This document shows, piece by piece, positions 24,131-49,714 of a DNA stretch of 64,000 nucleotides. The stretch is from an uncultured Acidobacteriota bacterium. Its GTDB lineage: Bacteria; Acidobacteriota; Thermoanaerobaculia; UBA5066; Gp7-AA6. The stretch's first letter is position 1, and every line of letters starts with the position of its first letter. The notes under the pieces were generated by a model that had not been told where the DNA came from, did no database searches, and was given only the letters and a program-made list of their open reading frames with translations. Location of the stretch: NCBI GenBank assembly GCA_963815655.1, contig CAWFHK010000001.1, positions 3,930,664 to 3,994,663 of the forward strand, written 5' to 3'. The translations under genes and the position numbers were made by a program.

Positions 24131-24165
24131 GAAGCCCCGGCGCCGCCGGGGCTTCATTGTTGTTG
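24131..24165. terminator. intrinsic terminator hairpin between convergent genes
   Basis: GC palindrome AGCCCCGGCGCCGCCGGGGCT followed by TCATTGTTGTT. It lies between the stops at 24104 (+) and 24175 (-). Confidence 0.5.
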
Positions 24166-26716: not shown

Positions 26717-27913
26717 CTACGAACGGCGATCCGGGGACGTTACGCGAAGACCGTCCGACAGCGGAACTGTTCCGGGCAAGATGACAACGTCGTTGTCCCG
26801 CAAGCCGTTCGTGATCTCGACGTCGTTGACGCCGATGAGGCCGATCGTGACGTCGCGCCGGCGCGCGCGGCCGTCCTCGAGCCGATAGACGAAGCGGCGG
26901 TCTCCGTCGCGGAAGAGGGCCGCGCGGGGAACGGCCAGGGCGCCGTGCTTCTCTCCCGTCACGATCTGCACGTTGACGGAGGCGTTGGGGGGAAGGGACA
27001 GGGTCTTGTCGGAGATCTCTCCCAGCACCTCGCCCACCTCGCGGCCGGCGGCTTGCCGGACGCCGGGCGACACGGCGAGGACCTTCCCCTCCCAGCGCCG
27101 GTCGGGCAGGCCGTCGAACAGGACGATGAGCCGCTGGCCCACCGCGACGCGCGGGAGGTCCGGCTGGTCCACGCGCGCCCGCACGCGCAGGTGCTCGGGG
27201 TCGGCCACGCCCGCGACCACCTGCCCGGCCGAAACGGTCTCTCCCGCCTTCCGCGGCAGGCCGTAGACGGTCCCCTCGAACGGGGCGGCGACGGTGAGGG
27301 CGGCCACGCGGCGCTCGAGCTCCCGCGCGGAGGTTTCGGCGAGCTCGAGACGGGACGGACCGGCGCCCGACCCGGCCAGCGATTCGAAGCGAGCCTGCGC
27401 CACGCGGAGGCGCTCGACTCCCTGGCGGTAGGCGAGCTCGTCCGTCTCGTAGGTCGCTCGGGGGATGGCCGACTGGCTCAGGAGCCGGGCGTCCGCCTCG
27501 AAGGTCTCCCTCGCGCGGGCCGTCTCCCGCTTCTGCTGCTCGAGATCTCCCTCCGCGCGGATCCTCTCCTCGGAGAGCTGGGCGGCCGTCGAGCGCGCCT
27601 GCAGAGCGGACTGGGTCAGCTCCGGGCTCTGGAGGACGACGAGCGGCGCCCCCTTCGCGACGCGATCCCCCTCGCGCGCGGGGATGGACGCGACCGTCGC
27701 CGCCTCGGGTGCCCGCAGCTCTCCGCCCGCCGGCGGCTCCAGGCTGCCGTCGGAGAGGATCGGAACGACGAGGTCCCTGCGCGCGACGCGCGCGGTCTGG
27801 ACCGGCACGCCGCTCGGGCCCCGGAAAGCGACGGCCGCGAGGATCACGACGAGCAGGACGGCCATGCCGGCCGCCCAGCGCCAGGGGATCCGGAAGCCGG
27901 GGTCTTCCTTCAA
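26717..27913 (-). CDS. efflux periplasmic adaptor (HlyD/MacA-family membrane fusion protein)
   Basis: N-terminal TM segment, coiled-coil hairpin and beta-barrel/lipoyl-like segments. The start may be TTG at 27913 or the internal ATG at 27865. Confidence 0.75.
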   Translation of the reverse strand: MKEDPGFRIPWRWAAGMAVLLVVILAAVAFRGPSGVPVQTARVARRDLVVPILSDGSLEPPAGGELRAPEAATVASIPAREGDRVAKGAPLVVLQSPELTQSALQARSTAAQLSEERIRAEGDLEQQKRETARARETFEADARLLSQSAIPRATYETDELAYRQGVERLRVAQARFESLAGSGAGPSRLELAETSARELERRVAALTVAAPFEGTVYGLPRKAGETVSAGQVVAGVADPEHLRVRARVDQPDLPRVAVGQRLIVLFDGLPDRRWEGKVLAVSPGVRQAAGREVGEVLGEISDKTLSLPPNASVNVQIVTGEKHGALAVPRAALFRDGDRRFVYRLEDGRARRRDVTIGLIGVNDVEITNGLRDNDVVILPGTVPLSDGLRVTSPDRRS

Positions 27914-27925
27914 GGCTCGCTTCGC

Positions 27926-27975
27926 TCGCCCGGGACTCGGGACTCGAGACTCGGGACTCGGAATTCGGGATTCGA
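27926..27975. repeat. GGGACTCG octamer tandem array (~5 copies) just upstream of the efflux operon start
   Basis: CCCGGGACTCGGGACTCGAGACTCGGGACTCGGAATTCGGGATTCG. The same octamer array recurs at 40.25-40.37 kb. Confidence 0.8.
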
Positions 27976-27980
27976 TGCGC

Positions 27981-29372
27981 TCATTCGTTCTCGGAACGCC
28001 GGAGAGGCCGGGTTTCCTCCTCGACGTCGGCGCCGTCTTCGTAGTAGTCGAGCCCGGAGTGATCGAGGACCTCTTCGCCCACGAGAATCCGCAGCGTGTT
28101 GGTCAGCTTCAGGTGCTGGATGAAGAGGTCGTGCTCCGGCTTCAGGTCCGGGCGGGACATGGGCGACTTGAAGTAGAAGGAGAGCCACTCCTGGATGCCG
28201 GAGAGCCCGGCGCGCTGCGCGAGATCGAGGAAGAGGATCAGGTCGAGAACGATCGGCGCGGCCAGGATCGAGTCGCGGCAGAGGAAGTCGATCTTGATCT
28301 GCATCGGCTGCCCCAGCCATCCGAAGATGTCGACGTTGTCCCACCCCTCCTTCGCGTCTCCGCGCGGCGGGTAGTACTCGATGCGGATCTTGTGGAAGTA
28401 GTCGCCGTACAGCTCGGCGTACAGGTCCGGCTGCAGGATGGCGTCGAGGACGGCGACCTTGGACAGCTCCTTGGTCCGGAAGGAGCCGGGGTCGTCCAGC
28501 ACCTCGCCGTCGCGGTTGCCGAGAATGTTGGTGGAGAACCACCCCTTCAGGCCCAGCATCCGCGCCTTCAACCCGGGCGCGAGGATCGTCTTCATGAGCG
28601 TCTGTCCGGTCTTGAAGTCCTTGCCCGCCACCGGGAGGCCCATGGCCTTCGAGAGCTCGACGAGTGCGGGGATGTCCACGGTCAGGTTCGGAGCGCCGTT
28701 GGCGAAGGGGACGCCCGCCTTGAGGGCCGCGTAGGCATAGATCATCGACGGGGAGATGTCGGCGGCGTTGCTCCGCAGACCCTTCTCGAACGCGGCGAGG
28801 GTCTCGTGGGTGGCGCTCGCTTCGAAATACGCCTCGGTCGAGCCGCACCAGACCATGACGGCGCGGTCGACGCCGCGCGTCCTGCGGAAGCTCTCGATGT
28901 CCGCGACGAGCGCTTCGGCGAGCTCCATTCTTGTCGCCGCCTGCTTCGACTGCTTCGCCTCGAGGCGCACGACGTACCGCTGGTCGAAGACGCCGGGCCA
29001 TGGAACGAGGCTCTCCAGCTCCTCGCGCACGGGGGCGAGGGTCGCCGGCGGCAGCACGCCGGCCGCGGCGGCCGCCTGCCAGGCGTTGTCGGGGAAGATG
29101 TCCCAGGCGCCGAAGACGAGGTCCTGGAGCCGCGCGAGCGGGACGAGCTCCTGGATCGGCACGAACCTCGGGTGAGTCCGCTTTCCCAGGCGGAGCTTCT
29201 GCATCTGGGTCAGCGAGCCGATGGGGCGGGCGAGCCCCTTGTTGATCAGGTGGACCCCGGCGACGAGCGTCGTCGAGATCGCTCCGAGGCCCGGCAGGAG
29301 GACGCCGAGCTTCCCGCGGGCGGGCGCGATCTCGCGGGCAAGCTCCGGGTAGAACGAGGTGCGGTCGCTCAC
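27981..29372 (-). CDS. myo-inositol-1-phosphate synthase (MIPS)
   Basis: N-terminal Rossmann NAD motif (LGVLLPGLGAISTTLVAGV). Conserved MIPS blocks (...NGAPNL..., ...LCRDSILAAPIVLDLI..., ...SKVAVLD...). GTG start with GGAG 9 nt upstream, overlapping the upstream stop as GTGA. Confidence 0.8.
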   Translation of the reverse strand: MSDRTSFYPELAREIAPARGKLGVLLPGLGAISTTLVAGVHLINKGLARPIGSLTQMQKLRLGKRTHPRFVPIQELVPLARLQDLVFGAWDIFPDNAWQAAAAAGVLPPATLAPVREELESLVPWPGVFDQRYVVRLEAKQSKQAATRMELAEALVADIESFRRTRGVDRAVMVWCGSTEAYFEASATHETLAAFEKGLRSNAADISPSMIYAYAALKAGVPFANGAPNLTVDIPALVELSKAMGLPVAGKDFKTGQTLMKTILAPGLKARMLGLKGWFSTNILGNRDGEVLDDPGSFRTKELSKVAVLDAILQPDLYAELYGDYFHKIRIEYYPPRGDAKEGWDNVDIFGWLGQPMQIKIDFLCRDSILAAPIVLDLILFLDLAQRAGLSGIQEWLSFYFKSPMSRPDLKPEHDLFIQHLKLTNTLRILVGEEVLDHSGLDYYEDGADVEEETRPLRRSENE

Positions 29373-30496
29373 GCGGGACTCCGAAGGACGTTTCCGCGCC
29401 CCGCGCGCGCCAGCGCCAGGAGCGAAAGGAAGAAGAGAGGAGCCCCGACCGCGGCGAGAATCAGGAACCAGCGGACGAGGCCAAGGGCCGCGAGGATGAC
29501 GACGAGGTAGATGAAGTCCCGGCGCGCGAGGGCGTCGGCCACGCGCGAATAGCGCGACGGCACGCGGGCGACCGAGGTGAAGAGCGGGCCTTCCCGTGTC
29601 CTGGCCGGCGCCATCGTCTGAGAATAGACGAATCCGGCCGAAGCCACGGTCCCCAGGATCGCGCCGGCGCCGAGCGCGAGCGGCCACGCGGAGCCCGAGC
29701 CCCGGCTCCATCCGATGGCGATCGCGCCGAACACGGCGGAATGGACGACGTTATCTCCCCAGAAATCGAGCGTGCCGCCCAGGCGCGATTCCTGGAACTT
29801 CAGGCGCGCCAGCTCGCCGTCGCAGCCGTCGACGATCGAATGCGCGAGGAAGAGGAGCGCGCCCGCGACATCGAGCGCCGGACGGGCCGGGAGGAAGAGA
29901 ACAGCTCCCACGAGGCCCAGGCCCACGCTCGCGAGCGTCATCGCGTTGGGAGTGACCCGCGTCGAGGCGAGGCGGCGGGAGATGGCGAGCGAGATCTTCC
30001 GGTCCACGTGGCGCGCCATGAAGCCGTCTTGCTGCTTGACGAGAGTCGCGAGCAGCCACATCTGCGCCTTCGGGAGGTCGGCCGGGCTCGAGACGGCGAA
30101 GCGCGATCCTTCCCCGGGAGGCTCCGGGAAGGGCGCGAAGGGGCGCGAGCGCAGGACCCCGGCGAGATGGTCCGACGGGCCGAGGTCTCCGAGGACGGCG
30201 TCCGGGTCCGCGGTCTCGAGCGCGGCCGCGCACACCCCGTCGGAATAGAGCCGCCCGGGTTCGAGCGGCATCTCTCGAAGCGAGCGCAGCCAGGGCACGG
30301 TCGGGATGACGGACCCCGGGAGCAGGACGACCCGCCCGGGGGAGAGCGAACCGGGCGCCCGCGCCTCGGCCGCGGGAAGAATCCGGCCGAAGCCGGCGCG
30401 CTCGGCGGCCTTCACGATTCTCGTCGTCAACGGCAGGCCCAGGACGATGGTCTCGCGCGGGACCGGCCCGGCCAGGATCACGAGGGTCGCGCTCAC
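29369..30496 (-). CDS. CDP-alcohol phosphatidyltransferase with ~150-aa N-terminal cytoplasmic extension
   Basis: CDP-OH-PT signature D-G-x2-A-R-x8-G-x3-D-x3-D (DGCDGELARLKFQESRLGGTLDFWGDNVVH). 5-6 TM helices. The N-terminal domain has a weak nucleotidyltransferase-like Gly-rich start (LVILAGPVP). Confidence 0.7.
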   Translation of the reverse strand: MSATLVILAGPVPRETIVLGLPLTTRIVKAAERAGFGRILPAAEARAPGSLSPGRVVLLPGSVIPTVPWLRSLREMPLEPGRLYSDGVCAAALETADPDAVLGDLGPSDHLAGVLRSRPFAPFPEPPGEGSRFAVSSPADLPKAQMWLLATLVKQQDGFMARHVDRKISLAISRRLASTRVTPNAMTLASVGLGLVGAVLFLPARPALDVAGALLFLAHSIVDGCDGELARLKFQESRLGGTLDFWGDNVVHSAVFGAIAIGWSRGSGSAWPLALGAGAILGTVASAGFVYSQTMAPARTREGPLFTSVARVPSRYSRVADALARRDFIYLVVILAALGLVRWFLILAAVGAPLFFLSLLALARAGRGNVLRSPA

Positions 30497-30500
30497 ATTG

Positions 30501-31541
30501 TCACCCGGACGTCATCTTAACGGGGGACCTGGCCGGAAGCGGGACGGGCTCGCCGCCGCGCCGGCTCGATTCGTAGGCGGCGGCCACCAGGCCCGCGCAC
30601 AGGCCCGCCACGGCGAGGTTCCCGCCGCGGGACGCGCGGTCGGTAATCGCCTCGGCGAACTCGGCGGCGACCCCGGCGAACCAGTCCGGGTGTTGCGAAC
30701 CGTGCGAAAGCGGCTCGGGGAACCCCCATTGCGCCGTCCCGGGTCCGCCGCCGGATCCGGTCAACTCGAGGAGCCTCCCGTCCAGGGAGAGCGCGCCCCG
30801 GCTCCCTTCGATCCAGGCCCGGTTCGTCCGCTCCGCGCCGGCCCACGTCAGGAAGACCTCCGCTTTCGCGCCGTCGTAGTCGAGGAAGACCCGGGCCGTG
30901 TCTTCGAACCCGCCGCCTCGTCTGTCCTCCAGATGCGCGGCGACATGGCGGGGAGGCTGCGGGAGCCAGTCGGCGAGAACGGAAAGCGCGTGCCAGCCGT
31001 GGTCCACGAGGATCCCTCCGCCCGAGACGGCGGGGTCCACGCGCCAGTTGCTCGCCATGCTTGACGCCGCGGGCTCGCGCCGCACGGTCTCCCAGAGAAA
31101 CCGGCGGACCTCCCCGATGGCTCCCTCCGCGGCGAGCTCGCGGGCCTTCGCGAAGATCGGCGCGTGCCGCCAGTTGAGGACCGTGAAGAGGACCCGGTCG
31201 GCACGCCCGGAGGCCTCGACGAGGGGCGGCAGCTCCTCCGGCCGGATGACGAGCGGCTTCTCGCACAGGACGTGCCGCCCGGAGAGGAGCGCCCGCCTCG
31301 CCAGGTCCGCGTGCGCGGCCGGCGGAGCGCAGATGTCCACGAAGTCGAGCTCCTCGCGAGCGAGCAGCTCTTCCGCGGAAGCGTGCCACCGGATTCCCGC
31401 CGCGCGGGACTCGAGCTCCCGCCGGCCGGTCTCGCTCGGATCGCTGGCGGCGACGAGGGAAACGTCTTCGCGCTCCAGCCACGCCGGCAGGTGGCCGCGC
31501 AGGGCCACGTTGCCGACTCCGATGATCGCCCCTCGAAGCAT
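30501..31541 (-). CDS. Gfo/Idh/MocA-family NAD(P)-dependent oxidoreductase (inositol/sugar dehydrogenase-like)
   Basis: N-terminal Rossmann motif IIGVGNVA...H and the EKP catalytic motif (VLCEKPL). Confidence 0.8.
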   Translation of the reverse strand: MLRGAIIGVGNVALRGHLPAWLEREDVSLVAASDPSETGRRELESRAAGIRWHASAEELLAREELDFVDICAPPAAHADLARRALLSGRHVLCEKPLVIRPEELPPLVEASGRADRVLFTVLNWRHAPIFAKARELAAEGAIGEVRRFLWETVRREPAASSMASNWRVDPAVSGGGILVDHGWHALSVLADWLPQPPRHVAAHLEDRRGGGFEDTARVFLDYDGAKAEVFLTWAGAERTNRAWIEGSRGALSLDGRLLELTGSGGGPGTAQWGFPEPLSHGSQHPDWFAGVAAEFAEAITDRASRGGNLAVAGLCAGLVAAAYESSRRGGEPVPLPARSPVKMTSG

Positions 31542-31555
31542 CGTCCTCCGGGCGG

Positions 31556-32821
31556 CTAGCCGGGTCTCTGTTCACGGAAGACGACACCCATGGCTTCGTC
31601 AAGGATGCCGAGGCCTTCGAGCGCCGTGTCCTCGTCGATCGTCAGCGGGGGGTTGATCCGGATGTTGTGCGAATAGCACATGGAGAGGAGTCCCCGGCGG
31701 ACGCATTCCTGAAACAAGGCCCGCGTCGTCTCCTTCTCGAGCGGCTCCTTCGTCGCGCGGTCCCTGACCAGCTCGACGCCGAGGAGCAGGCCCTTGCCCC
31801 GGACATCCCCGATGAAGGGGTGCTTCTCCTTCATCGCGAGGAGCCGGGCGAGCATCGCGCCCCCGACCCGCTCGGAATTCTCGACGAGGTTCTCGCGCGT
31901 GATGATCTCCAGCGCGGCGAGCCCGGCGGCCGCGGCGAGCGGGTTGCCGCCGTACGAGGAGGAGCTGCCGCTCGGTTTCGAGAACGGGGGGTGCGCGGTG
32001 AGCGCTTCGGTCGAGACGACGCCGGAGAGCGGGAACCCGCCGCCGACGCCCTTGCCGACCGTCATGACGTCGGGCACCACGCCGTCGTGGTCCACGCCCC
32101 ACATCTTTCCCGTCCGCCCGAAGCCCGTGATCATCTCGTCGGCGATGAAGAGGGCGCCGTGCTCGCGGGCGATGGACTGGATGGCGGGGAGAAAGCCCGG
32201 AGGCGGAATGACGTTGCCGGCGGTGCCCTGCATCGGCTCGACGATCACAGCCGCGACCGCGCCTCCCGTCTGGTTTCGGATCACCTCGCGCGTCTTCTCG
32301 GCGCAGGCGATGCCGCAGGCGGGATAGGTCAGGGAGAGCGGGCAGCGATAGCAGTAGGCGTAGGGCGCCGAGTAGCAGCCCGGGGCGAAGGGCCCGAGGC
32401 CTTCCTTGAAGCCGCCCCAGAGGAGCGGCAGAACGCCCCCCGTCTTGCCGTGGAAGGCGCCCGTGTAGCCGACGAACTCGTGTTTCTTCGTCGCGGACTT
32501 GGCCAGCCGGAACGCCGCCTCGACCGCCTCGGCGCCGCCGGAGAAGAGCTGGATGCGCGTCAGGCCCGGCGGCGCCACGCTCGCGAGGAGCTCCAGGAAC
32601 TTCGCCCGGACCTCCGTCGTGAAGCTTCCGAAGGTCACGCGTTCGAGCTGCTCCTTCAGGCGGGCGACGTAGTGCGGGTGGCAGTGCCCCACGCTCCCCA
32701 CCGCGACGCCGGCGATGAAGTCGATGTAGGCCCTGCCGTCTTCGTCGTAGAGACGGCTGCCGCTTCCGCGGGCGATGGCGAGTCCCGAAGAGAGCGCGAA
32801 GGATTGGAGTCCCGGCGCCAT
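31556..32821 (-). CDS. class-III (AT-III) PLP aminotransferase, HpnO/ornithine-GABA aminotransferase-like
   Basis: Class III aminotransferase blocks (DGRAYIDFIAG..., ...LFIADEMITGFGRTGKMWG..., ...TVGKGVGGGFP...). ATG at 32821. Confidence 0.8.
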   Translation of the reverse strand: MAPGLQSFALSSGLAIARGSGSRLYDEDGRAYIDFIAGVAVGSVGHCHPHYVARLKEQLERVTFGSFTTEVRAKFLELLASVAPPGLTRIQLFSGGAEAVEAAFRLAKSATKKHEFVGYTGAFHGKTGGVLPLLWGGFKEGLGPFAPGCYSAPYAYCYRCPLSLTYPACGIACAEKTREVIRNQTGGAVAAVIVEPMQGTAGNVIPPPGFLPAIQSIAREHGALFIADEMITGFGRTGKMWGVDHDGVVPDVMTVGKGVGGGFPLSGVVSTEALTAHPPFSKPSGSSSSYGGNPLAAAAGLAALEIITRENLVENSERVGGAMLARLLAMKEKHPFIGDVRGKGLLLGVELVRDRATKEPLEKETTRALFQECVRRGLLSMCYSHNIRINPPLTIDEDTALEGLGILDEAMGVVFREQRPG

Positions 32822-32886
32822 GTGACGCTGCTCGTCGGCGAAGACTCTCCGGGAGCGCGGGCCGGGGCCTCCCTCCCGATGTTTGC

Positions 32887-33759
32887 TCAGGGTCGGGCCT
32901 CGACCGGACCGGCCTCCCTCTGCAGGCAGGCCGCGAGGCGCACGGCGATGCGCTCGGACGCGATCCGGCGGTAGAGGGCGAAGCTCGGCCAGGCGTTGAT
33001 GTCGATGACCACGAGGCGGCCGTCGGCGGCCGCGATGGCGTCTCCGCCGTAGACCTCGAGGCCGAGCGAGCCGGCGGCGCGGGCGGCGGTCGCCGCGAGA
33101 GCGTCCGTGTCGAAGGGATGCCGCGACAGTTCCTGGTCCCGATGGTAGAACCACTGGAACCAGGCCTCGCCCTCCGGCTCCGGGGGCGCGACGCCGTAGA
33201 ACTTGATCAGGTCTCCGGGCACGTGCTCCTGGATGACCGCCGTCTCGATGCCGCGCTCCGCCATTCGCGCGAGCACGGCGGCCGCCGGCTCCGAGCCCGC
33301 GGCGAACGACACGTCGTCCTCCCGCGTCCTGTGATGGTCGCCGCGCTTGACCCAGACCGGCGCCGCGCGCGAAGGGAGCGCGTCCGCCGGCAGGGGCTCG
33401 CCCGTCGCCACGAGGACGCTGCGGGGGAACGGGATTCCGTCTCTCGCGAGGAGCGCGATCATCCGGTGGCGGCGGGTGTTGAGGATCGCCGACACGCGGT
33501 TGACGATGCGCGCGCCGTTCTGCTCCCACCGCCCGAGCAACTCGAGGATCGGGGGAAGCTCGCACATGACGAAGGCCAGGGAAGGCGCCTGCGCCGACGC
33601 GGCCGCCTCGTCCGGCGTCAGGAGGGTCACGGGCTGTCCCAGCGATTCCAGGCGCCGGGCCGTCGCGCGGAGGATCTCGGCGTCGTCCACCTCCCGGCCG
33701 GGGGAATGCATGAGCTCGCGGTAGATCCCCCAGCAGGACCGCCCCGCCGGCGCGTTCAT
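32887..33759 (-). CDS. ATP-grasp family ligase
   Basis: ATP-grasp C-terminal motifs (...VIQEHVPGDLIKFYGV..., ...VVIDINAWPSF...). The ATG overlaps the upstream stop (ATGA). Confidence 0.6.
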   Translation of the reverse strand: MNAPAGRSCWGIYRELMHSPGREVDDAEILRATARRLESLGQPVTLLTPDEAAASAQAPSLAFVMCELPPILELLGRWEQNGARIVNRVSAILNTRRHRMIALLARDGIPFPRSVLVATGEPLPADALPSRAAPVWVKRGDHHRTREDDVSFAAGSEPAAAVLARMAERGIETAVIQEHVPGDLIKFYGVAPPEPEGEAWFQWFYHRDQELSRHPFDTDALAATAARAAGSLGLEVYGGDAIAAADGRLVVIDINAWPSFALYRRIASERIAVRLAACLQREAGPVEARP

Positions 33760-34484
33760 GGTTTCCCTGCCGTCACGGGCGCGCCGGGCTCGCGGGCCGC
33801 GAGCTCCTCGGCGAGGGCCAGGTCCTCGGGGCGGTCCACGTCCACGACGGCGGGGATGGAGAAGGCGAGGAGGGTCTCTCCGCTCCGCGCGAGCCAGGAG
33901 AGGAACTCCCGCAGCCGTCCGATGTTCTCGGGAGGGCGGAGCTTCCGGACCCGCTCGGGGAAGGCGTACATTCCTGCCGTCACGACGTCTCCTTTCTCTC
34001 CTCCAAGAGCCGTGATCCGCCCCGCCGGGTCGACGGACGCGCGCAGCGGCTTTTCGTCCGCGACGAACGGAGTCACCGCGAGCATCGCCGCCTCCGGCGC
34101 CTCCGCGGCCGCTCGCGCGAAGCGCAGGAAGTCTTCCCGCGGGCACCAGGCGTCCACCGTCGAGAAGAGCGCCGGACCCGGCGGCAGGCGCGCCGCGACC
34201 CGCCGGAAGCTCTCGTAGGAGGAGGCCGTCGTCTTCAGGATGACCTCCGTCTCGAGGGAAGGGAACCGGCCGCGGATCCAGTCGGCGCAGTCCTGCTCGC
34301 TCTCGTTGAAGATGACCGTGACGCGGTCGACGCCGGCCGCCGCGAAGTTGGCGAGGACGTGCGCGACGAGCGGGACGCCGGCGACCCGCACGAGGGGCTT
34401 GGCGGCCCCCCCTCCTCCCGCGCGCAGCCGGCTGCCCTCGCCGGCCGCGAGGAGGCCGCCGACGCGGATCGGCCCGGGCGTCAC
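33756..34484 (-). CDS. nucleotidyltransferase (NTP_transferase fold; sugar/alcohol-phosphate cytidylyl- or guanylyl-transferase-like)
   Basis: N-terminal GGLLAAGEGSRL...KPL signature. GTG start overlapping the upstream stop (GTGA). Confidence 0.65.
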   Translation of the reverse strand: MTPGPIRVGGLLAAGEGSRLRAGGGGAAKPLVRVAGVPLVAHVLANFAAAGVDRVTVIFNESEQDCADWIRGRFPSLETEVILKTTASSYESFRRVAARLPPGPALFSTVDAWCPREDFLRFARAAAEAPEAAMLAVTPFVADEKPLRASVDPAGRITALGGEKGDVVTAGMYAFPERVRKLRPPENIGRLREFLSWLARSGETLLAFSIPAVVDVDRPEDLALAEELAAREPGAPVTAGKP

Positions 34485-35218
34485 GGCAGGATCTCCTCGA
34501 TCTCCGCGAGCCGCCGGATCATCGGATCGCCCGGACAGCACGGCCGGGCGCCTCCGTCGGCCTCGCGGGCGGCGAGCCAGACATGCCGCATGCCGGCCTC
34601 GCGGGCGCCCGCCATATCGCGCGGGGCGGAGTCGCCCACGAAGACCGTCTCGCCGGCATGCGCTCGAAGCGGCGTCAGGGCGGCCTCGAAGATGCGGCGG
34701 TCGGGCTTCGTGTATCCGACCACGGCCGAATCGACGGCGACGGAGAGCGACGGCGCGAGACCGGTCTCGGCGCAGACCGCGGCGAGATTTCCGTAGAAGT
34801 TGGAGACGATCCCGATGCGGTACCGGCGGGCGAGCCGCTCGAGCAGCCGCGCGCTTTCGGCGAGCCGCTCGCTCGCCTGCGCGTGGAACCGCGCCGCCAG
34901 CCTCGCTGCGACGGATTCGTCCGCGAGGCCGAGCGTTCCGGCGAGCCCGGCGGCCAGCCTCTCGACGGTCTCGCGCAGCCCGAGCGTCGCGGGAAGCCTC
35001 CCGACGAGCGCGTCGTTGGCGGTGTAGAAGGCCGGGTCGAATCTCTCCCGCGGGACCTCGATCCCTTCCTCCCGGCAGTGGCGGAAGAAACGCTCCTTCC
35101 AGGGGATGCCCTCGGCGTCGAGCGTGCCCCCGAAGTCGAAGAGGAGGAAGAGGACCGGATCGTTGCGGACCGGGTCCGGCGCCGAGTGCCGGGGGCCGGG
35201 AGGCGCAAGCGGATTCAT
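34481..35218 (-). CDS. HAD-superfamily hydrolase (phosphatase)
   Basis: Motif I DFGGTLD (DxD), motif II SN, and the motif III/IV K...GD (TVFVGDSAPRD). Confidence 0.7.
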   Translation of the reverse strand: MNPLAPPGPRHSAPDPVRNDPVLFLLFDFGGTLDAEGIPWKERFFRHCREEGIEVPRERFDPAFYTANDALVGRLPATLGLRETVERLAAGLAGTLGLADESVAARLAARFHAQASERLAESARLLERLARRYRIGIVSNFYGNLAAVCAETGLAPSLSVAVDSAVVGYTKPDRRIFEAALTPLRAHAGETVFVGDSAPRDMAGAREAGMRHVWLAAREADGGARPCCPGDPMIRRLAEIEEILP

Positions 35219-36228
35219 CGCAGCTCCTCGGCCCCGGTCGGCAGCTCGACGGCCGACGCCCGCTTCCCGCGGGCCGGGCGCGCGATCAGGTAGAGAGCCC
35301 CGGGCACGAGCCAGACGAACTCCCGGGCGCGCCGCGCGAGCGCGTACGCCGCGCCCTGCGCCGCCGCGAGCCCGAGCAGGACGAAGATCCCGACCCGGAC
35401 CCCTTCGGCGCTGCCGGCCCTCGCCGGGACCCAGAGGAACATGTTGTTGAGCGCCATGGCCATCGCTTCGACGGCGAACGCGGTCGGCCACCCGGCGCCG
35501 GGCGCCACGAGGCGCAGGATGAGATACGTCTCGACCAGTCCCCCGCACCAGCCGAGAAAGCTCAGGCCGACGGCCGCCCCGAACCGTCCGCGCCGCCTCG
35601 CGTAGAAGCCGCGGATGTCGGCATCCACGCGCTGAGCGGCTTCCTGGTACCGGCCGACCCGCGCGGCGAGGAACCTCCAGCGCGCGAGCCACCGCAGGAT
35701 CGGGGCGTAGGTCCCCCGGAAGAGCGACCACGTCAGCAGGACAAAGAGCGCGCCCAGCACGGCGACCCCGCCGAGGGCCCCCCAGCGCGCCCCCGCGGGC
35801 AGAGGAAAGCGGACCAGGCAGACCGTCACTCCGCCGACGATGAAGACCCACTGGGCCAGCATGTCGGCGTGCTTGTGGATCGTGAGCGAGGCGAGCGCGC
35901 GGCCCGGCGGCAGCGTCCCGGTGAGCAGCCGGGCCTTGAGCGGCTCGCCCGCGACGCCTCCGGGCGCGACGTAGTTGACCGTGTACCCCGCGAGGTAGAC
36001 GCCCATCAGGCGCGGCAGCGCGGAGAGAGGCAGGAGCGGATCGATCACGAGCCACCAGCCGAGCAGGAACGCGGCCTCCGCGAAGAAGTAGATCGCGACG
36101 AGCAGGACGAACCAGGCGCCGATCGCCTCCAGGTTCGAGGCGATCGCGGGCCAGCCGACCCGCCAGAAGAGCCAGGCGACGAGCGCCAGGCCCGCCAGCA
36201 GGAGCGCGCCCCGCGTGCTCCGGTTCAT
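35215..36228 (-). CDS. UPF0104 / lysyl-phosphatidylglycerol-synthase-TM-like 'flippase-like' membrane protein (HpnL-like)
   Basis: About 8 TM helices, all hydrophobic, and an Arg/Lys-rich N-terminus. This family is known as a hopanoid-cluster-associated membrane protein. Overlaps the HAD gene (ATGA). Confidence 0.6.
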   Translation of the reverse strand: MNRSTRGALLLAGLALVAWLFWRVGWPAIASNLEAIGAWFVLLVAIYFFAEAAFLLGWWLVIDPLLPLSALPRLMGVYLAGYTVNYVAPGGVAGEPLKARLLTGTLPPGRALASLTIHKHADMLAQWVFIVGGVTVCLVRFPLPAGARWGALGGVAVLGALFVLLTWSLFRGTYAPILRWLARWRFLAARVGRYQEAAQRVDADIRGFYARRRGRFGAAVGLSFLGWCGGLVETYLILRLVAPGAGWPTAFAVEAMAMALNNMFLWVPARAGSAEGVRVGIFVLLGLAAAQGAAYALARRAREFVWLVPGALYLIARPARGKRASAVELPTGAEELR

Positions 36229-36247
36229 GGAAGGGGCTCCGCGCGCC

Positions 36248-37225
36248 TCACGCCGTCGGGAGAAGCGCCTTCAGTTCGACCGGGAGGGGAAAGTTCACGT
36301 CCTCCTGCACCGTTTCGAACTCCTCGACGGACTCGACGCCCAGACTTTCGCGCGCGTAGTCCACGACTTCGCGCACGAGGATCTCCGGCGCGGACGCGCT
36401 CGCGGTCAGGCCGAGGACCCGGACGCCCGAGAGCCATTCCGGCCGGATGTCCATCGCCCGCTCGATCAGGTACGACGGGACGTTGTGCGCGCGGCCGACC
36501 TCGCAGAGGCGAAGGGAGTTGGAGCTGTTGGGCGCGCCGAGCACCAGGAGGGCGTCCACGTGCGGCGCCATCGCGCGCACCGCGTCCTGCCGGTTCTGGG
36601 TGGCGTAGCAGATGTCCCCCTTGGGCGGGCTGACCATGTCGGGGAAGCGGCGCTTCAGGACCTCGACGATCTCGCGCGTGTCGTCGAGCGAGAGTGTCGT
36701 CTGGGTCAGGTACGCCACCCTGCCGGGATCGGGGACCTCCACCGTCTCGGCCTCTTCCCGGTTCCCGACCAGGCGGATCGCCCCGGGCGCCTCTCCGAGC
36801 GTGCCGATCGTCTCGTCGTGGTCGTGATGCCCGATCAGGAGAATCGTGTAGTTCTTCTTCGCGTAGTGGATCGCCTCGAGGTGGACCTTCGTGACGAGCG
36901 GGCAGGTCGCGTCAATTGTCTTCAGCTGCTTGCGGCGGGCGTCGGCCCGCACCGTCGGCGAGATGCCGTGGGCCGAATAGATGAGCCACGACCCGTCGGG
37001 GACCTCGTTGACCTCCTCGACGAAGACAGCCCCCTTCTCCCGCAGCTCGTCCACGACGTAGCGGTTGTGGATGATCTCCTTTCGCACGTAGACCGGGCCG
37101 TCGCAGACCTGCAGCGCCCGGTCCACGACGTCGATCGCGCGCACGACGCCGGCGCAGAAGCCGCGCAGCCCCGCCACGAGGAGCTTCTCGACGCGCGCCG
37201 CGCCGGGATCCGTCGCTACGACCAT
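36248..37225 (-). CDS. ispH: 4-hydroxy-3-methylbut-2-enyl diphosphate reductase
   Basis: Conserved IspH/LytB blocks (GFCAGV, ...ATCPLVTKVH..., ...HNVPSYLIE...). Confidence 0.9.
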   Translation of the reverse strand: MVVATDPGAARVEKLLVAGLRGFCAGVVRAIDVVDRALQVCDGPVYVRKEIIHNRYVVDELREKGAVFVEEVNEVPDGSWLIYSAHGISPTVRADARRKQLKTIDATCPLVTKVHLEAIHYAKKNYTILLIGHHDHDETIGTLGEAPGAIRLVGNREEAETVEVPDPGRVAYLTQTTLSLDDTREIVEVLKRRFPDMVSPPKGDICYATQNRQDAVRAMAPHVDALLVLGAPNSSNSLRLCEVGRAHNVPSYLIERAMDIRPEWLSGVRVLGLTASASAPEILVREVVDYARESLGVESVEEFETVQEDVNFPLPVELKALLPTA

Positions 37226-39165
37226 GTCACCGTCTCCACGGCCTTCTCCTCGTCACGCGGCGAGGCGGTCTTCTCTCCGGGCGCCGCGGCGCGCGCGAGC
37301 TCCGGGTAGAGCGTCAGGACCGTCTCCACGACGCCCGCCGCGTCGAGCTTCAGGTTCGCGCGCTGGAGCGCCTGCGGACTGTGCTCCACGAACTGGTCCG
37401 GGATCGCGTGGATCTTCAGCTTCCCGGCCGGAAGGCCGGCCGCGTGGAAGGCCTCGAGGACGCCGCTTCCGAAGCCGCCCGTCGCCAGGTGTTCCTCGAG
37501 CGTCAGGACGCGCGGCGCCATGAGCGCGATCCGGGAGAGAAGGTCCCCGTCCAGCGGCTTGGCGAACCGCGCGTCGGCCACGCCGCAATCGATTCCTCGC
37601 TCCTTCAGCGCGTCGGCGGCGGCGAGGGCCACCGCGACCATCGAGCCGTAGGCGAGCAGGCAGAGGTCCTTCCCTTCGCGGAGGATCTCGCCGCGGCCGA
37701 TCGGGATCTTCTTCAGCTCCGGGTCGAGCTCGACGCCCACGCCGAGCCCGCGCGGGTAACGGATCGTGAAGGGCCCGCCCGATTCGATCGCGGTGAAGAG
37801 CAGGTGCTGCAGCTCGTTCTCGTCCCTGGGCGCCGCGACGACCATGTTCGGAAGGGAGCGGGTGTAGGTGATGTCGAAGATCCCGTGGTGGGTCTTCCCG
37901 TCGTCGCCGACGAGGCCAGCCCGGTCCGCGCAGATCGTCACCGGGAGGTTCTGCAGGCAGACGTCGTGGATCAGCTGGTCGAACGCGCGCTGCAGGAACG
38001 TGGAGTAGATCGCGACGACCGGCTTCCAGCCCGCCTTGGCCATGCCGGCCGCCATGATGACGGCGTGCTCCTCGGCGATGCCGACGTCGTAGACCCGTCC
38101 GGGGAAGCGCTTCTGGACCTCGATCAGGGCCGTCCCTTCGAGCATCGCGGCGCTGATCGCGACGATCTTCTCGTCTTTCTCCATGAGCCGCGAGAGCGTC
38201 TTCGCGAAGACCTGCGAGTAGGTGTAGCGCGCGCCCGGCCCGACGCTCGCCGACGGCGTGCCCGGCTGATGGAACTTGGAAGGGTTGTCCTCGGCGAGCT
38301 TGTAGCCCCGCCCCTTGTGGGTCAGGACGTGAACGACGACCGGCGTGCCTTCCCGCGAGATGTCCTTGACGCTCTTCAAGGACTCGGCGAGCTCCTCGAG
38401 GTTGTGGCCGTCGACCGGGCCGATGTACTGGAGGCCCATCTCCTCCCAGATCAGGTTGGGGAAGAAGAGCCCCTCCACCGAAGTCTTGACCTTGCGGGCG
38501 ATCTTCCACGCCTCTTCCCCGAGCGGCAGCCTGGAGAGGAGCTTCTGGCCCGCTTCCGTCAGCTTCTGGTACTTGGGGTGGAGCATGAACCGGTTGCGCC
38601 AGTGCGCGAGCCAGCCGATGTTCTCGGAGATCGACCAGCCGTTGTCGTTGAAGATGACGACGAGCCTCTTCGGCTTCAGGTGGACGATGTTGTTCAGGGC
38701 CTCGTAGCTCGGCCCCGAGGTCAGGGCGCCGTCCCCCACGACGGCGACGACGTAGGGCTCGCCCGGAGCGTTCTGAAGCGCGACCGCCATCCCGAGCGCG
38801 TAGGAGAGACCCGTCCCCGCGTGTCCGGCCGCGAGCATGTCGTGTGGGCTCTCCGCCGGCTCCGCGAAGCCGGACAGCCCGCCGGGCGTGCGGATCGTCG
38901 CAAACCGGTCCCTCCGGCCCGTGACGAGCTTGTGGGTGTAGCACTGGTTCGACGTGTCCCAGACGATCCGGTCCCTGGGGCTGTCGAAGGCGCGGTGGAG
39001 GGCCAGGGTCAGCTCCACGACGCCGAGATTGGAGGCCAGGTGCCCGCCGGTCCGGGTGATCGTCTCCACGATCATGCCGCGGCATTCCTCCGCCACCTCG
39101 CCCAGCTCCTTGATGCTCAAGGCCTTCAGGTCCTGAGGGCCCTCGATCCCTTTCAGTCGCGACAT
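37216..39165 (-). CDS. dxs: 1-deoxy-D-xylulose-5-phosphate synthase
   Basis: TPP-binding GDG(A)LT...NDN motif, the transketolase-like pyrimidine domain and the C-terminal domain. 649 aa. Confidence 0.9.
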   Translation of the reverse strand: MSRLKGIEGPQDLKALSIKELGEVAEECRGMIVETITRTGGHLASNLGVVELTLALHRAFDSPRDRIVWDTSNQCYTHKLVTGRRDRFATIRTPGGLSGFAEPAESPHDMLAAGHAGTGLSYALGMAVALQNAPGEPYVVAVVGDGALTSGPSYEALNNIVHLKPKRLVVIFNDNGWSISENIGWLAHWRNRFMLHPKYQKLTEAGQKLLSRLPLGEEAWKIARKVKTSVEGLFFPNLIWEEMGLQYIGPVDGHNLEELAESLKSVKDISREGTPVVVHVLTHKGRGYKLAEDNPSKFHQPGTPSASVGPGARYTYSQVFAKTLSRLMEKDEKIVAISAAMLEGTALIEVQKRFPGRVYDVGIAEEHAVIMAAGMAKAGWKPVVAIYSTFLQRAFDQLIHDVCLQNLPVTICADRAGLVGDDGKTHHGIFDITYTRSLPNMVVAAPRDENELQHLLFTAIESGGPFTIRYPRGLGVGVELDPELKKIPIGRGEILREGKDLCLLAYGSMVAVALAAADALKERGIDCGVADARFAKPLDGDLLSRIALMAPRVLTLEEHLATGGFGSGVLEAFHAAGLPAGKLKIHAIPDQFVEHSPQALQRANLKLDAAGVVETVLTLYPELARAAAPGEKTASPRDEEKAVETVTWS

Positions 39166-39383: not shown

Positions 39384-40295
39384 ATGGAAGCCTTGCGGAT
39401 CGGATCGGACGAACACGCCCGTCTCTTCTGCGGGACGTTCCTGGAGACTCACCGCCCCTTCCGGGCCCGGGACATCGTCTGGCCCGAGCTGGACGAGGAG
39501 AACCTGGCCAGGTTGAAGGGCCTCCCCGTCTGGGACGAGGCGGCGAGGACGGAAGCCGCCACCGCAGTCAAGGTGCAGACCCTCGGGGAAGCCGAGACCG
39601 ACCCGCTCCTGAAGGAAGCCATCGCCCTGCAGGGCTACGAGGAGGGGCGCCACGCGGAGATCATCTCCCTCCTGACGAAGACCTACGGGATCGCCACCGC
39701 TCCCTTCGGAGAGCCGGAGAGGCCGAAGAACCCGACGTGGACCTTCCTGCGCACCGGCTACGGCGAGTGCCTCGATTCCTTCTTCGCCTTCGGCCTCTTC
39801 GACATCGGGCGCAGGAGCGAGTTCTTCCACGCGGACCTGATCGCGCTCTTCGACCAGATCATGCAGGAGGAGGCGAGGCACATCCTCTTCATCGTGAACT
39901 GGGCGGCGTACCTGCGCGCCCGCAGGCCCCTTCCGCTCAAGCCGGTGTTCGACGCGCGGCGGGCCTGGAACATCGCCGCGCAGGCCTTCGACCGCGTGAG
40001 CGGCGCGATGCGAATGGCCGGCGGCGGAAACGGCGGCGGCGGAGAAAACGGTGAAGAGAAGGCGAAGGGGACGCAGAGGGGGTTCACGCTGAAGAGCCAC
40101 TCGGCCTTCGGCGATTTCAAGCTGCGCTCGTTCCTGGAGCTCTGCCTGGCCGAGAACGTGCGGCGCCTCTCGCCCTACGACCCGCGCCTGTTGAGACCCA
40201 CGCTGGTACCGGGGACCGTGCGGCTCCTGGTGAAGCTGCTCCCCCGGGCGAAGCCGGGACGCGGGACTCGGGACGCGAGACTCGAACCGAAGTGA
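39384..40295 (+). CDS. ferritin-like di-iron carboxylate protein
   Basis: ATG with GGAGAGGAGG RBS. Two ExxH motifs (EEGRH, EEARH) in helical context. Gly-rich C-terminal tail. Confidence 0.55.
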   Translation: MEALRIGSDEHARLFCGTFLETHRPFRARDIVWPELDEENLARLKGLPVWDEAARTEAATAVKVQTLGEAETDPLLKEAIALQGYEEGRHAEIISLLTKTYGIATAPFGEPERPKNPTWTFLRTGYGECLDSFFAFGLFDIGRRSEFFHADLIALFDQIMQEEARHILFIVNWAAYLRARRPLPLKPVFDARRAWNIAAQAFDRVSGAMRMAGGGNGGGGENGEEKAKGTQRGFTLKSHSAFGDFKLRSFLELCLAENVRRLSPYDPRLLRPTLVPGTVRLLVKLLPRAKPGRGTRDARLEPK

Positions 40296-40365
40296 TGGTC
40301 CTTCGCTCCAAGAACCCAACCAGGTTTCCCCCTCCGAACCCCGAGTCCCGAGTCCCGAGTCCCGA
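40250..40365. repeat. inverted GGGACTCG / CGAGTCCC octamer arrays spanning the ferritin-like stop and abutting the next start codon
   Basis: CGGGACGCGGGACTCGGGACGCGAGACTCG (40250-40280) and CCGAGTCCCGAGTCCCGAGTCCCGAC (40340-40365) are reverse complements of each other. The second ends 3 nt before the ATG at 40369. Confidence 0.75.
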
Positions 40366-40368
40366 CTG

Positions 40369-41541
40369 ATGGGAAGCGACCTCGTCAGCGCCTGCGTCTT
40401 CTGCGCGGGGATCCTGCTCGGCATGGAGCTGACGCCGCCGCCCGGATACCACGCGGAGGTCGGGTTCTCCTACGCGACGGCGGCGCGCCGGTACGTCATC
40501 GGCCCGGGAAGCGACGACACGTCCGACGTCACGCCCAAGTTCGCGCTCGTGGGGCTGGGCTGGTCGCGGGACGCCGCCGCCGGGCTCGGGGCCGGCACGC
40601 CCGCAGCGGAGTGGAGGGTGCGCGTCGCCCTCGCGCCTTCGCACGACGAGCAGGAGCAGACGCCGTTCGCGGCGACCAACACGACGGCCACCGGCACCGG
40701 CCGTTACGAGAACTTCGCGCTCCTCGCGCGCTACCCGCTCTCGCCGCGCGACTCGCTCGAGGCCGCGTGGAACCGCCGGACGCACAAGGCGACCGACGAG
40801 CTGGACATCGCCCACGAGCGCTTCTTCCTCTCGGAACAGCGCGTCCTCTCGGCCGAGCGCGTGGACGTCGCGGTCGGCTGGAGGCGCCGATGGAAAGGAA
40901 TCGAGGCAGCCCTGTCGGCGCGGTACGCGCGCCCGAGCGGGAGCCAGACGACGTCGGCCACGGACCGGATCTCGGAGGGCCCGATCTACGGAGGAGCGCT
41001 CGAGGCGCGCGCCCGCCGGGGACGGTGGACGCTCTCGGTCCTGGCCGAGCGGGCGAGCGGATCGATCGGCGTGCACGAGCAGAGCCAGCCGGATTTCGCG
41101 CACCGCGATTTCGACGGCACCGCCACCCTCGAGGCGTACCGGATCGGAGCGGGTTACGCGTCGGGCAGCACCGAAGCGTTCCTCCAGGCCACCTACGACC
41201 GCTCGCGCCTCCCCTTCGTGGCGTTCGCGGTCCTGGGCACCGAGGTCTCGGCCCTGGAGGCGGGCTACCACCCCGAGTCCCGCGCGAACCTGGTCTTCTG
41301 GGACCTCACCGTCCGGCACGCGTTCGTGCCGGGGTTCCGGGTGAAGGTCCTCCTGCGCTCTTCGAGCGGCGACGAGACGCTGACGCTGACCGACCCGGCC
41401 GGGGTCCTGCCGGCGCGCCGCCTCGACATCCGCCGCTCCGGAGTCTTCGGCGCCGGCCTCTCCCGCGTCCTCGGCGGCCCGGAGGTGAGCCTGGGCGTCG
41501 GCGCCGAGATCGCCCTCCCTTTCGCAGACCGGGGGCCGTAA
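40369..41541 (+). CDS. hypothetical secreted / outer-membrane-like protein
   Basis: Signal peptide (ACVFCAGILLGMELT). Alternating beta-strand-like pattern with aromatic C-terminal region (IALPFADRGP). Confidence 0.5.
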   Translation: MGSDLVSACVFCAGILLGMELTPPPGYHAEVGFSYATAARRYVIGPGSDDTSDVTPKFALVGLGWSRDAAAGLGAGTPAAEWRVRVALAPSHDEQEQTPFAATNTTATGTGRYENFALLARYPLSPRDSLEAAWNRRTHKATDELDIAHERFFLSEQRVLSAERVDVAVGWRRRWKGIEAALSARYARPSGSQTTSATDRISEGPIYGGALEARARRGRWTLSVLAERASGSIGVHEQSQPDFAHRDFDGTATLEAYRIGAGYASGSTEAFLQATYDRSRLPFVAFAVLGTEVSALEAGYHPESRANLVFWDLTVRHAFVPGFRVKVLLRSSSGDETLTLTDPAGVLPARRLDIRRSGVFGAGLSRVLGGPEVSLGVGAEIALPFADRGP

Positions 41542-41648
41542 GACGTGAGACGTAAGAACGTGAGGCGTGGCGCGGGAAGGGCATTTGGAGCTTCGTTTTG
41601 CGTTTCACGCTTAACGTCTTACGGCTCTGGTGTTAACTTGGTCCAAAG

Positions 41649-49548: not shown

Positions 49549-49714
49549 GATTCGCTTGCCGGGGCCGTTGCCTGTCACCGACGGCCCCACTGCTTCCCTC
49601 CGTTTTGCCGGGAGTGTAATCCCTCCGACCCGGACACCCGCAAACCGATTTCGGGAGTATACGGTCCCGGACCGGGAGGCGATTCAAGGAGAGCCGATCG
49701 CGGATAATGCCGTC

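Follow-up and report, generated by a model that had tools for sequence, protein, structure and literature searches.

A candidate (amino)cyclitol-phosphate head-group module joined to dxs and ispH and recurrently linked to hopanoid genes

What do the genes that follow dxs and ispH in an uncultured Acidobacteriota bacterium make, and is a hopanoid its recipient? The window analysed here is a stretch of 64,000 nucleotides (GenBank assembly GCA_963815655.1, contig CAWFHK010000001.1), in which ten co-directional minus-strand open reading frames (ORFs) fill positions 27981-39165, dxs being the first and the gene for myo-inositol-1-phosphate synthase (MIPS) the last. A first inspection of the letters and ORFs alone, hereafter the sequence-only reading, had proposed an undescribed inositol- or aminocyclitol-phosphate head-group module beside a hopanoid cluster. 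Our analysis suggests that the eight genes at 27981-36228 most likely represent a Kennedy-type (amino)cyclitol-phosphate head-group pathway, and we put at about 0.4 the probability that its acceptor is either an extended hopanoid, through its polyol side chain, or an isoprenoid lipid closely coupled to it. Hopanoids rank among the major membrane lipids of bacteria, and the most abundant molecular fossils derive from them; only part of the enzymes that vary their polar ends have been identified.

The G+C content of the window is about 70%, and gene models were therefore picked by frame, start-codon context and homology, while families were assigned to each ORF by Pfam and NCBIfam profile searches at curated cut-offs. 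All families that had been named for the ten genes were recovered. Their junctions comprise four 4-bp ATGA/GTGA overlaps, a 10-bp overlap of dxs and ispH, and spacings of 19, 14, 4 and 65 bp; the tight packing claimed earlier (overlaps or gaps under 20 bp) is therefore seen at eight junctions and broken by the 65-bp gap between the ATP-grasp and aminotransferase genes. The operon limits drawn in the sequence-only reading enclose the ten genes correctly and end too early, since the same-strand run goes on for three more genes, to 24175. The transcription unit probably extends past MIPS through this trio (a MacA-type adaptor, a MacB-type permease and a TolC-like protein) to a GC-rich hairpin of 11 pairs at 24131-24155, which a scan for terminator-like sites placed between convergent genes. 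From 39165 down to 24175 the scan gave one further minus-strand site of this type, a weak stem of 5 pairs that falls within the LPG_synthase_TM gene.

The cytidine diphosphate (CDP)-alcohol phosphotransferase (29369-30496, minus strand; PF01066, 39 bits against a cut-off of 22) has the architecture of AF2299 and of the synthase of di-myo-inositol-phosphate-phosphate (DIPPS). Its motif DX2DGX2AR(X8)G(X3)D(X3)D is intact, and D223, D226, G227, A230, R231, G240, D244 and D248 are invariant among 16 homologues. About 150 extra N-terminal residues form a degenerate cytidylyltransferase-like domain without the GxGxR nucleotide-binding signature, in keeping with a nucleotidyltransferase that is encoded by a gene of its own. 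When the family profile was compared with the PDB, AF2299 came first (4e-34, including a weak match to the N-domain), followed by the inositol-1-phosphate cytidylyltransferase (IPCT)/DIPPS protein AfIPCT/DIPPS (6e-22), with phosphatidylinositol-phosphate (PIP) and phosphatidylinositol (PI) synthases well behind. In NCBIfam, the DIPPS part of NF041135 scored 88.7 bits, far below its cut-off of 580, and the PIPSynth model NF045883 scored 46.8 bits against 170, so that the protein is not a PIP synthase by this model. This ranking, together with the low PIPSynth score, points to a soluble CDP-alcohol as the predicted donor, as in AF2299 and DIPPS. Ordinary phosphatidylinositol synthesis of the PIP-synthase type was rejected on the same model scores.

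The neighbouring MIPS (27981-29372, minus strand; myo-inositol-1-phosphate or inositol-3-phosphate synthase of the Bacteroides type, 463 aa) is supported by PF07994 (316 bits) and PF01658. Its best PDB match is 7NWR (E 4e-157), which is BT_1526, the MIPS proven to feed inositol lipids in Bacteroides. The transferase and MIPS genes remain neighbours even where alphaproteobacterial loci are reduced (L026 and L072 of the comparison described below). The HAD-IA phosphatase (34481-35218, minus strand; PF00702, PF13419, PF13242) overlaps both of its neighbours by 4 bp. The MobA/IspD-like nucleotidyltransferase of the NTP_transf_3 type (33756-34484, minus strand; PF12804, 49.6 bits; PF00483) matches IspD and the IPCT part of NF041135 weakly (22.9 bits for the latter), and among PDB entries it recovered weak generic sugar-phosphate nucleotidyltransferases only, without IPCT; we regard it as a putative cytidylyltransferase for an (amino)cyclitol phosphate. 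The CDP-inositol-type set of MIPS, nucleotidyltransferase, CDP-alcohol transferase and phosphatase that the sequence-only reading had recognised is upheld, with a transferase that is AF2299/DIPPS-like rather than PIP-synthase-like.

Two further enzymes may aminate the ring. The Gfo/Idh/MocA dehydrogenase (30501-31541, minus strand; PF01408, PF22725, PF02894) is of the type acting on ring hydroxyls of sugars and cyclitols; scyllo- and myo-inositol dehydrogenases, DgpA and WbpB are among its relatives in the PDB, and its structural relatives oxidise such hydroxyls. The class-III (omega) aminotransferase (31556-32821, minus strand; PF00202, 328 bits) has GabT and dialkylglycine decarboxylase as top PDB matches, and its identity is 64-86% across loci with the full module and 54% in L081. 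The two genes are both present or both absent in every compared locus, the pattern to be expected if together they turn a cyclitol hydroxyl into an amine, which agrees with the earlier suggestion that they are inosamine makers. All four classes of an inosamine branch (MIPS, phosphatase, PF01408 dehydrogenase and aminotransferase) are thereby encoded together.

The product of 32887-33759 (minus strand) gave no Pfam match and only sub-threshold RimK matches in NCBIfam. Structure prediction identified it as an ATP-grasp enzyme of an unmodelled family, having the fold with its Mg/ATP-binding motifs and RimK/LysX ligases as nearest folds; judged by this model, it is probably a carboxylate-amine ligase, a kinase activity being a conceivable alternative. 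The polytopic, flippase-like membrane protein of 35215-36228 (minus strand) contains several hydrophobic segments and belongs to the LPG_synthase_TM family (PF03706, 106 bits against 33.4). It had been called HpnL-like, and the family part of this call stands; the protein falls below the HpnL model (TIGR03476, 108.5 bits against 195.65), which marks it, on profile scores, as HpnL-like and no bona fide HpnL. Upstream, ispH (36248-37225, minus strand), encoding the 4-hydroxy-3-methylbut-2-enyl diphosphate reductase, reaches 312 bits with TIGR00216, above the cut-off, and matches PF02401; dxs (37216-39165, minus strand), encoding 1-deoxy-D-xylulose-5-phosphate synthase, reaches 710 bits with TIGR00204, also above the cut-off, and contains the DXP_synthase_N, Transket_pyr and Transketolase_C domains.

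From these families we propose the following order of reactions. What the analysis shows directly are the gene families, how they are conserved and where they lie in the genomes; the sequence of steps, the nature of the amine and acyl groups and the acceptor are deduced from them. MIPS would convert glucose-6-phosphate into inositol phosphate. The dehydrogenase and the aminotransferase would replace one ring hydroxyl by an amine, giving an inosamine, and the HAD phosphatase may either free inositol before this oxidation or dephosphorylate a final phosphodiester-phosphate intermediate, as in the DIPP and PIP pathways. The nucleotidyltransferase would turn the cyclitol phosphate into a CDP-alcohol, from which the AF2299/DIPPS-like transferase would pass the phospho-(amino)cyclitol to an alcohol acceptor at the cytoplasmic face of the membrane. 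Most likely the RimK/LysX-like ATP-grasp enzyme then joins a carboxylate, for example an amino acid, to the new amine as an amide. Finally, the LPG_synthase_TM protein would translocate the lipid product, which in Thermoanaerobaculia the MacA/MacB-permease/TolC-like trio may carry to the outer membrane.

To follow the module through other genomes, the window proteins were compared by tblastn with 85-89 loci (numbered L001 onwards), and the counts below use the 64 of them with a length of at least 12 kb. The relatives are without exception metagenome-assembled genomes (MAGs), some with doubtful labels, e.g., "Patescibacteria" and "Nitrosotalea", and their flanks were annotated by tblastn with the window proteins and a crude ORF caller. 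For the transferase family, more than 2000 homologues were scored and loci from at least 541 GTDB species confirmed; the closest locus, contig_47257 of ENA ERZ25039463, has 90-99% amino-acid identity. At least six of the eight module genes occur in 49 of the 64 long loci, mostly in the order of the window. The core order (LPG_synthase_TM, HAD, NTP-transferase, ATP-grasp, aminotransferase, Gfo/Idh/MocA dehydrogenase, CDP-alcohol transferase, MIPS) is kept in Thermoanaerobaculia, Methylomirabilota and Nitrospirota, the Methylomirabilota hosts being Methylomirabilales (including a "Ca. Methylomirabilis oxygeniifera" MAG) and Rokubacteria. The same order appears in independent gene calls with Pfam labels on public contigs. 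A rearranged form is found in Chloroflexota, in one locus of Alphaproteobacteria and in some loci of Methylomirabilota/Rokubacteria. The LPG_synthase_TM gene accompanies the module in 51 of the 64 loci. A four-gene set of ATP-grasp, HAD, flippase-like and transferase genes also occurs, in eight loci, four of which (L054, L062, L069, L071) have the full module on the same contig. Since the gene order recurs in dozens of genomes and is kept across several phyla, we reject a chance juxtaposition, an outcome that the sequence-only reading had named as refuting it.

As a separate observation, thirteen loci of the Rokubacteria type (L028, L029, L037, L038, L050, L055, L058, L065, L070, L073, L076, L084 and L085) have an ORF of 514-524 aa directly after the CDP-alcohol transferase gene; the two that were scanned, L038 and L085, contain a CopD domain in it, and MIPS is not adjacent in these loci.

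The neighbourhood comparison also confirms the proposed association with hopanoid and methylerythritol phosphate (MEP) pathway genes, which recurs in at least three phyla and in different arrangements. A hopanoid or MEP gene lies within 10 kb in half of the long loci (32/64), and dxs-ispH is fused to the module in 25 of the 33 long Acidobacteriota loci. A full hpn cluster neighbours the module in the window and in L054, L062, L069, L071 and L088; in L088 the transferase is only about 54% identical, and the module, the divergent three-gene operon and the hpn cluster are all kept. In L054, L062, L069 and L071 the hpn cluster itself contains a second flippase-HAD-ATP-grasp-transferase set, which converges on the squalene synthase gene. 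Outside the Acidobacteriota, the module of Methylomirabilales has shc upstream of it on the same strand (about 0.4 kb away in L008 and 1.3 kb in L010), shc and hpnH are found within 3-6 kb in L014, L018 and L027, and in the Nitrospirae MAG L086 the module is followed by ispG and then hpnH, with MlaC, Omp85 and DUF3187 genes before it. Altogether, shc or hpnH is present within 10 kb in 6 of the 31 non-acidobacterial loci, which are not phylogenetically independent, as compared to a chance of about 0.4% that a random 20-kb stretch of a 4-5 Mb genome includes shc. The hopanoid link of the module is recurrent and not universal. In the window itself, shc, hpnH, hpnA and an hpnG-like gene are present in the neighbourhood, and the claim that they adjoin the module has to be corrected: a plus-strand operon of three genes and a small ORF separate them from it, and their distance upstream is 4.5-10 kb.

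Copy numbers in the Acidobacteriota MAGs deserve a separate mention. Two ATP-grasp/CDP-alcohol-transferase pairs occur in L053/L062, L061/L069, L054 and L071, the second pair being in the hpn cluster. The flippase-like and HAD genes are single-copy in L061/L069, as is HAD in L053/L062, and L054 has a second flippase-like gene. The paired copies suggest two related head groups or acceptors.

We propose a hopanoid or isoprenoid acceptor because the module shares a predicted transcription unit with dxs-ispH and repeatedly stands beside shc and other hpn genes. A narrower version, in which a CDP-activated N-acylated inosamine phosphate is attached to the side chain of an extended hopanoid, is doubtful, though worth stating. 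One can also suppose a variant, attractive for its mechanism, in which ribosylhopane phosphate, the product of the HpnG phosphorylase, would be cytidylylated by the nucleotidyltransferase; the transferase with six transmembrane (TM) helices would then couple it to (amino)inositol phosphate, and the HAD enzyme would remove the terminal phosphate, as in a PIP-synthase-like reaction with a hopanoid donor.

Several points weigh against the proposed pathway and its hopanoid acceptor. The common substrates of class-III aminotransferases are terminal amines or aldehydes, and PF01408 dehydrogenases are as a rule paired with aminotransferases of the DegT type. We know of no report of a phospho-cyclitol hopanoid. 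MIPS is adjacent in none of the 11 Rokubacteria loci, and shc or hpnH is near the module in only the six non-acidobacterial loci counted above; no hopanoid or MEP gene was found within 10 kb in most Rokubacteria, in both Chloroflexota or in Alphaproteobacteria except L083 (ispH), and the annotated Rokubacteria flanks hold housekeeping genes and a CopD-domain membrane protein, without hopanoid genes. The TM part of the transferase, of about 215 aa and without a C-terminal extension, is consistent with six TM helices. AF2299 and DIPPS, whose products are soluble phosphodiesters, have in common an N-domain resembling cytidylyltransferases, six TM helices and donor pockets that are hydrophilic, and process no lipids; the six-TM layout has been tied to soluble acceptors, the enzymes with lipid acceptors having 3-4 extra helices (PMC4634129).

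The alternative that survives best keeps the same chemistry and changes the acceptor to a glycerolipid or sphingolipid (diacylglycerol or ceramide), so that the product would be a phospholipid of the phosphatidyl-inositol or phosphatidyl-inosamine type, and the linkage to dxs, ispH and hpn genes would reflect co-regulated envelope remodelling only. The five-family core does match the putative CDP-inositol route of the Bacteroides vulgatus type (PMC9246714), MIPS is closest to BT_1526, and many loci of Rokubacteria, Chloroflexota and Alphaproteobacteria have no hopanoid gene nearby. However, the Bacteroides route is itself unconfirmed, and the six-TM architecture speaks equally against diacylglycerol as acceptor. 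Moreover, co-regulation would have to account for hopanoid or MEP adjacency in at least three phyla and in varied arrangements, including a second transferase set within the hpn cluster, and for the 6/31 occurrence outside Acidobacteriota set against the chance level of about 0.4%, with the reservation on phylogenetic independence made above. We consider this alternative rather unlikely.

The architecture of the transferase is better accommodated if the product is a soluble phosphodiester or small metabolite, such as a di-inositol-phosphate-like or glycero-phospho-inosamine compatible solute or an N-acyl-inosamine redox protectant or osmoprotectant, the HAD enzyme removing a terminal phosphate. 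Among solved structures the closest relatives are AF2299 and AfDIPPS, whose donors and acceptors are soluble and which process no lipids, and they likewise combine six TM helices with an N-terminal cytidylyltransferase-like domain; the phosphatase is present, and RimK-like and glutathione-synthetase-like ATP-grasp enzymes make soluble amides. A soluble product is nevertheless hard to reconcile with a flippase-like gene in 51 of the 64 loci, with flanks devoted to outer-membrane lipid transport or efflux (MacAB-TolC-like in Thermoanaerobaculia; MlaC, Omp85 and DUF3187 in Nitrospirae) and with the lipid (hopanoid/MEP) contexts of the module. In addition, solutes of the di-myo-inositol phosphate (DIP) type are, to our knowledge, confined to hyperthermophiles, while the hosts here are bins of Acidobacteriota, Methylomirabilota and Nitrospirota, some of them named as groundwater samples. 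These points make a soluble product quite improbable. A secondary-metabolite aminocyclitol pathway without a membrane role is very improbable: MIPS, phosphatase, PF01408 dehydrogenase and aminotransferase do form the proposed hygromycin A branch (compare also the inosamine branch of streptomycin), but no glycosyltransferase, polyketide synthase/non-ribosomal peptide synthetase or resistance gene is present here, the core includes a CDP-alcohol transferase embedded in the membrane and a flippase-like protein, and so wide a distribution (the transferase family in at least 541 GTDB species, with more than 2000 homologues scored), with the order largely kept across phyla, is atypical for specialised clusters.

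The genes around the ten-gene run were analysed in the same way. Downstream of MIPS, with spacings of 67, 0 and -8 bp, are the MacA/HlyD-type periplasmic adaptor (26717-27913, minus strand; TIGR01730, 133 bits, above the cut-off), a MacB-type permease with MacB_PCD and FtsX domains and without an ATPase domain (25511-26716, minus strand; PF12704, PF02687; matching MacB residues 256-646) and the TolC-like outer-membrane factor (24175-25518, minus strand; PF02321; TIGR01844, 56.7 bits against 225.15). The trio directly follows MIPS in many Thermoanaerobaculia loci, and no ABC ATPase gene was found near it. A glycolipid exporter of the DevBCA type was considered and rejected, because the DevB model gave 36.6 bits against a cut-off of 129; the trio is MacAB-TolC-like only.

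Divergently from dxs runs the plus-strand operon of three genes. The first encodes a ferritin-like dimetal protein with two ExxH motifs (39384-40295), named after NCBI homologues annotated as "ferritin-like domain-containing"; it has no Pfam or NCBIfam match and weak Foldseek matches to the ribonucleotide reductase subunit RNR-R2 and to R2lox. This gene adjoins dxs in 23 of the 33 Acidobacteriota loci, and in L062, L069 and L071 it is co-directional with the second set of LPG_synthase_TM, HAD, ATP-grasp and CDP-alcohol phosphotransferase genes. The second (40369-41541, plus strand) encodes a conserved protein without a family match, with an N-terminal hydrophobic segment, kept in L054, L060, L088 and L089. 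The third encodes a B12-binding radical SAM protein with DUF4070 (41649-43250, plus strand; PF13282, PF04055, PF02310), for which identity with HpnP, HpnR or HpnJ was rejected by score (HpnR, 54 bits against 650). The operon (39384-43250) is kept between the module and the hpn cluster in L054, L088 and L089, and in L054 it runs into the second flippase-HAD-ATP-grasp-transferase set. Its proteins may be unrecognised hopanoid-modifying enzymes.

Tandem arrays of the heptamer (GAGTCCC)n, lying in transcript orientation, were noticed in two spacers within operons, that from MIPS to the adaptor (27932-27966, minus strand) and that from the ferritin-like gene to the next gene (40336-40363, plus strand), with an inverted copy in the 3' end of the ferritin-like gene (40256-40283, minus strand). 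Matches number 11 against 2.9 expected, and L001 and L006, which are close relatives, keep the spacer arrays; RNA structures or binding sites for proteins are conceivable roles.

Between the radical SAM and squalene synthase genes there is an ORF of 101 aa (43299-43604, minus strand) with high third-position G+C and no family match. Beyond it, the hpn genes are accompanied by a squalene/phytoene synthase family protein (43705-44610, minus strand; PF00494, 126 bits); next come an HpnG-like nucleoside phosphorylase (44607-45374, minus strand; PF01048; TIGR03468, 109 bits against 187) and HpnA (45337-46323, minus strand; TIGR03466, 479 bits, above the cut-off). HpnH, the adenosylhopane synthase (46545-47546, minus strand; TIGR03470, 352 bits, above the cut-off), has its start at 47546 on the basis of the translation and overlaps the shc stop by 4 bp; the start at 47924 of a 459-aa "HpnH" ORF is spurious. 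The squalene-hopene cyclase gene shc (47543-49548, minus strand) was delimited by three-frame translation and has a 1-nt frameshift near 47958-47965, which divides its QW and DxDDTA-type motifs over two frames. This frameshift is most likely an assembly error, otherwise the gene is a pseudogene, because it lies beside a G7 run and corresponds to a single-base gap against the 90%-identical gene of L054. Divergent from shc, and near the B12 radical SAM gene, is metH for the cobalamin-dependent methionine synthase (49376-53179, plus strand; TIGR02082, 1190 bits).

Found in at least 541 species, the module couples inositol/aminocyclitol chemistry to hopanoid and MEP genes and would define a new head-group pathway. 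If the hopanoid acceptor is correct, phospho-aminocyclitol bacteriohopanepolyols (BHPs) would be a new lipid class, missed by standard acetylation-based BHP analyses; one would expect the product to be common among Acidobacteriota, Methylomirabilota and Nitrospirota of soil and groundwater, and new biomarker lipids would be predicted for Methylomirabilota, among them methane oxidisers that depend on nitrite, for Nitrospirota and for soil Acidobacteriota. If the acceptor is instead a glycerolipid, the CDP-inositol (Kennedy-like) route, itself unconfirmed, would extend far beyond Bacteroidetes and have an aminated variant. The module would also give a concrete testable function for the LPG_synthase_TM family and for the unmodelled ATP-grasp family.

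The nearest described system is the Bacteroides vulgatus-type cluster, in which MIPS, an NTP transferase, a CDP-alcohol transferase and HAD are encoded with an LPG-synthase-like gene nearby, and for which a route via CDP-inositol to inositol lipids was proposed without functional proof (Heaver et al. 2022, PMC9246714). The window holds these five families in one contiguous run, and both systems have the five-family core and the CDP-inositol-first logic in common; this likeness is at the family level and follows the published description, sequences being compared for MIPS (BT_1526) only. The Bacteroides cluster lacks the Gfo/Idh/MocA dehydrogenase, the class-III aminotransferase and the ATP-grasp enzyme, all three of which are present in the window, has no linkage to dxs, ispH or hpn genes, and belongs to gut Bacteroidetes. 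The module was called undescribed in the sequence-only reading, and in the literature searched this holds for the addition of these three enzymes and for the hopanoid linkage, whereas the core resembles the Bacteroides cluster.

With IPCT/DIPPS and AF2299 of Archaeoglobus fulgidus the transferase shares the N-terminal cytidylyltransferase-like domain, six TM helices and the full CDP-alcohol phosphotransferase motif, and the DIP pathway likewise combines MIPS, a cytidylyltransferase and a phosphatase; in the window both MIPS (27981-29372) and the HAD phosphatase (34481-35218) stand alongside. The best PDB match of the transferase is AF2299 and not DIPPS, and neither it (88.7 bits) nor the nucleotidyltransferase (22.9 bits) reaches the 580 bits required by NF041135. 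As compared to the DIP pathway, the module adds dehydrogenase, aminotransferase, ATP-grasp and flippase-like genes and a separate nucleotidyltransferase, and it comes from metagenome bins whose phyla are not known to be hyperthermophilic.

The inosamine branches of hygromycin A and streptomycin use the same four enzyme classes on the way from glucose-6-phosphate to inosamine. For neo-inosamine-2 of hygromycin A, the proposed route consists of Hyg18 (MIPS), Hyg25 (phosphatase), Hyg17 (PF01408 dehydrogenase, verified in vitro) and Hyg8 (aminotransferase) (PMC10949010). In the window, by contrast, the amine-forming enzyme is of class III, the product seems to be activated as a CDP derivative and passed on by an enzyme of the membrane, and there are no antibiotic-type tailoring or resistance genes.

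Known hopanoid tailoring genes (HpnI/J/K, HpnO for amino-BHP, HpnL) share with the module the setting by shc, hpnH, hpnG and hpnA, and on the hopanoid reading the module too would yield a polar hopanoid with a cyclitol, possibly an aminated one. HpnO is a class-III aminotransferase and HpnL an LPG_synthase_TM protein, and both family types are represented in the module, although its membrane protein misses the HpnL cut-off. The known cyclitol ether of hopanoids is made from N-acetylglucosamine via HpnI/K/J, which are absent at the module; the module would instead build a phosphodiester from CDP-activated inositol. HpnL relatives are enriched near shc, with function unknown, according to a preprint on shc microsynteny (bioRxiv 2025.07.29.667474), in which the term "CDP" does not occur. 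In the literature searched, which left most subscription journals outside its scope, we found no hpn cluster containing MIPS and a CDP-alcohol transferase, as the sequence-only reading had supposed, and no account of this module or of phospho-cyclitol hopanoids.

A conceptual likeness exists also with MprF, the lysyl-phosphatidylglycerol synthase/flippase, which puts an amino-bearing group on a lipid head group and then translocates the lipid. It shares the LPG_synthase_TM domain with the membrane protein of the window, which is without the tRNA-dependent synthase domain, so that the ATP-grasp enzyme would supply any acylation. The chemistry of the module is of a known kind, that of CDP-alcohol head-group pathways; what is new relative to the literature found is the addition of the dehydrogenase, the aminotransferase and the ATP-grasp enzyme to a CDP-inositol core and its coupling to MEP and hopanoid genes across phyla.

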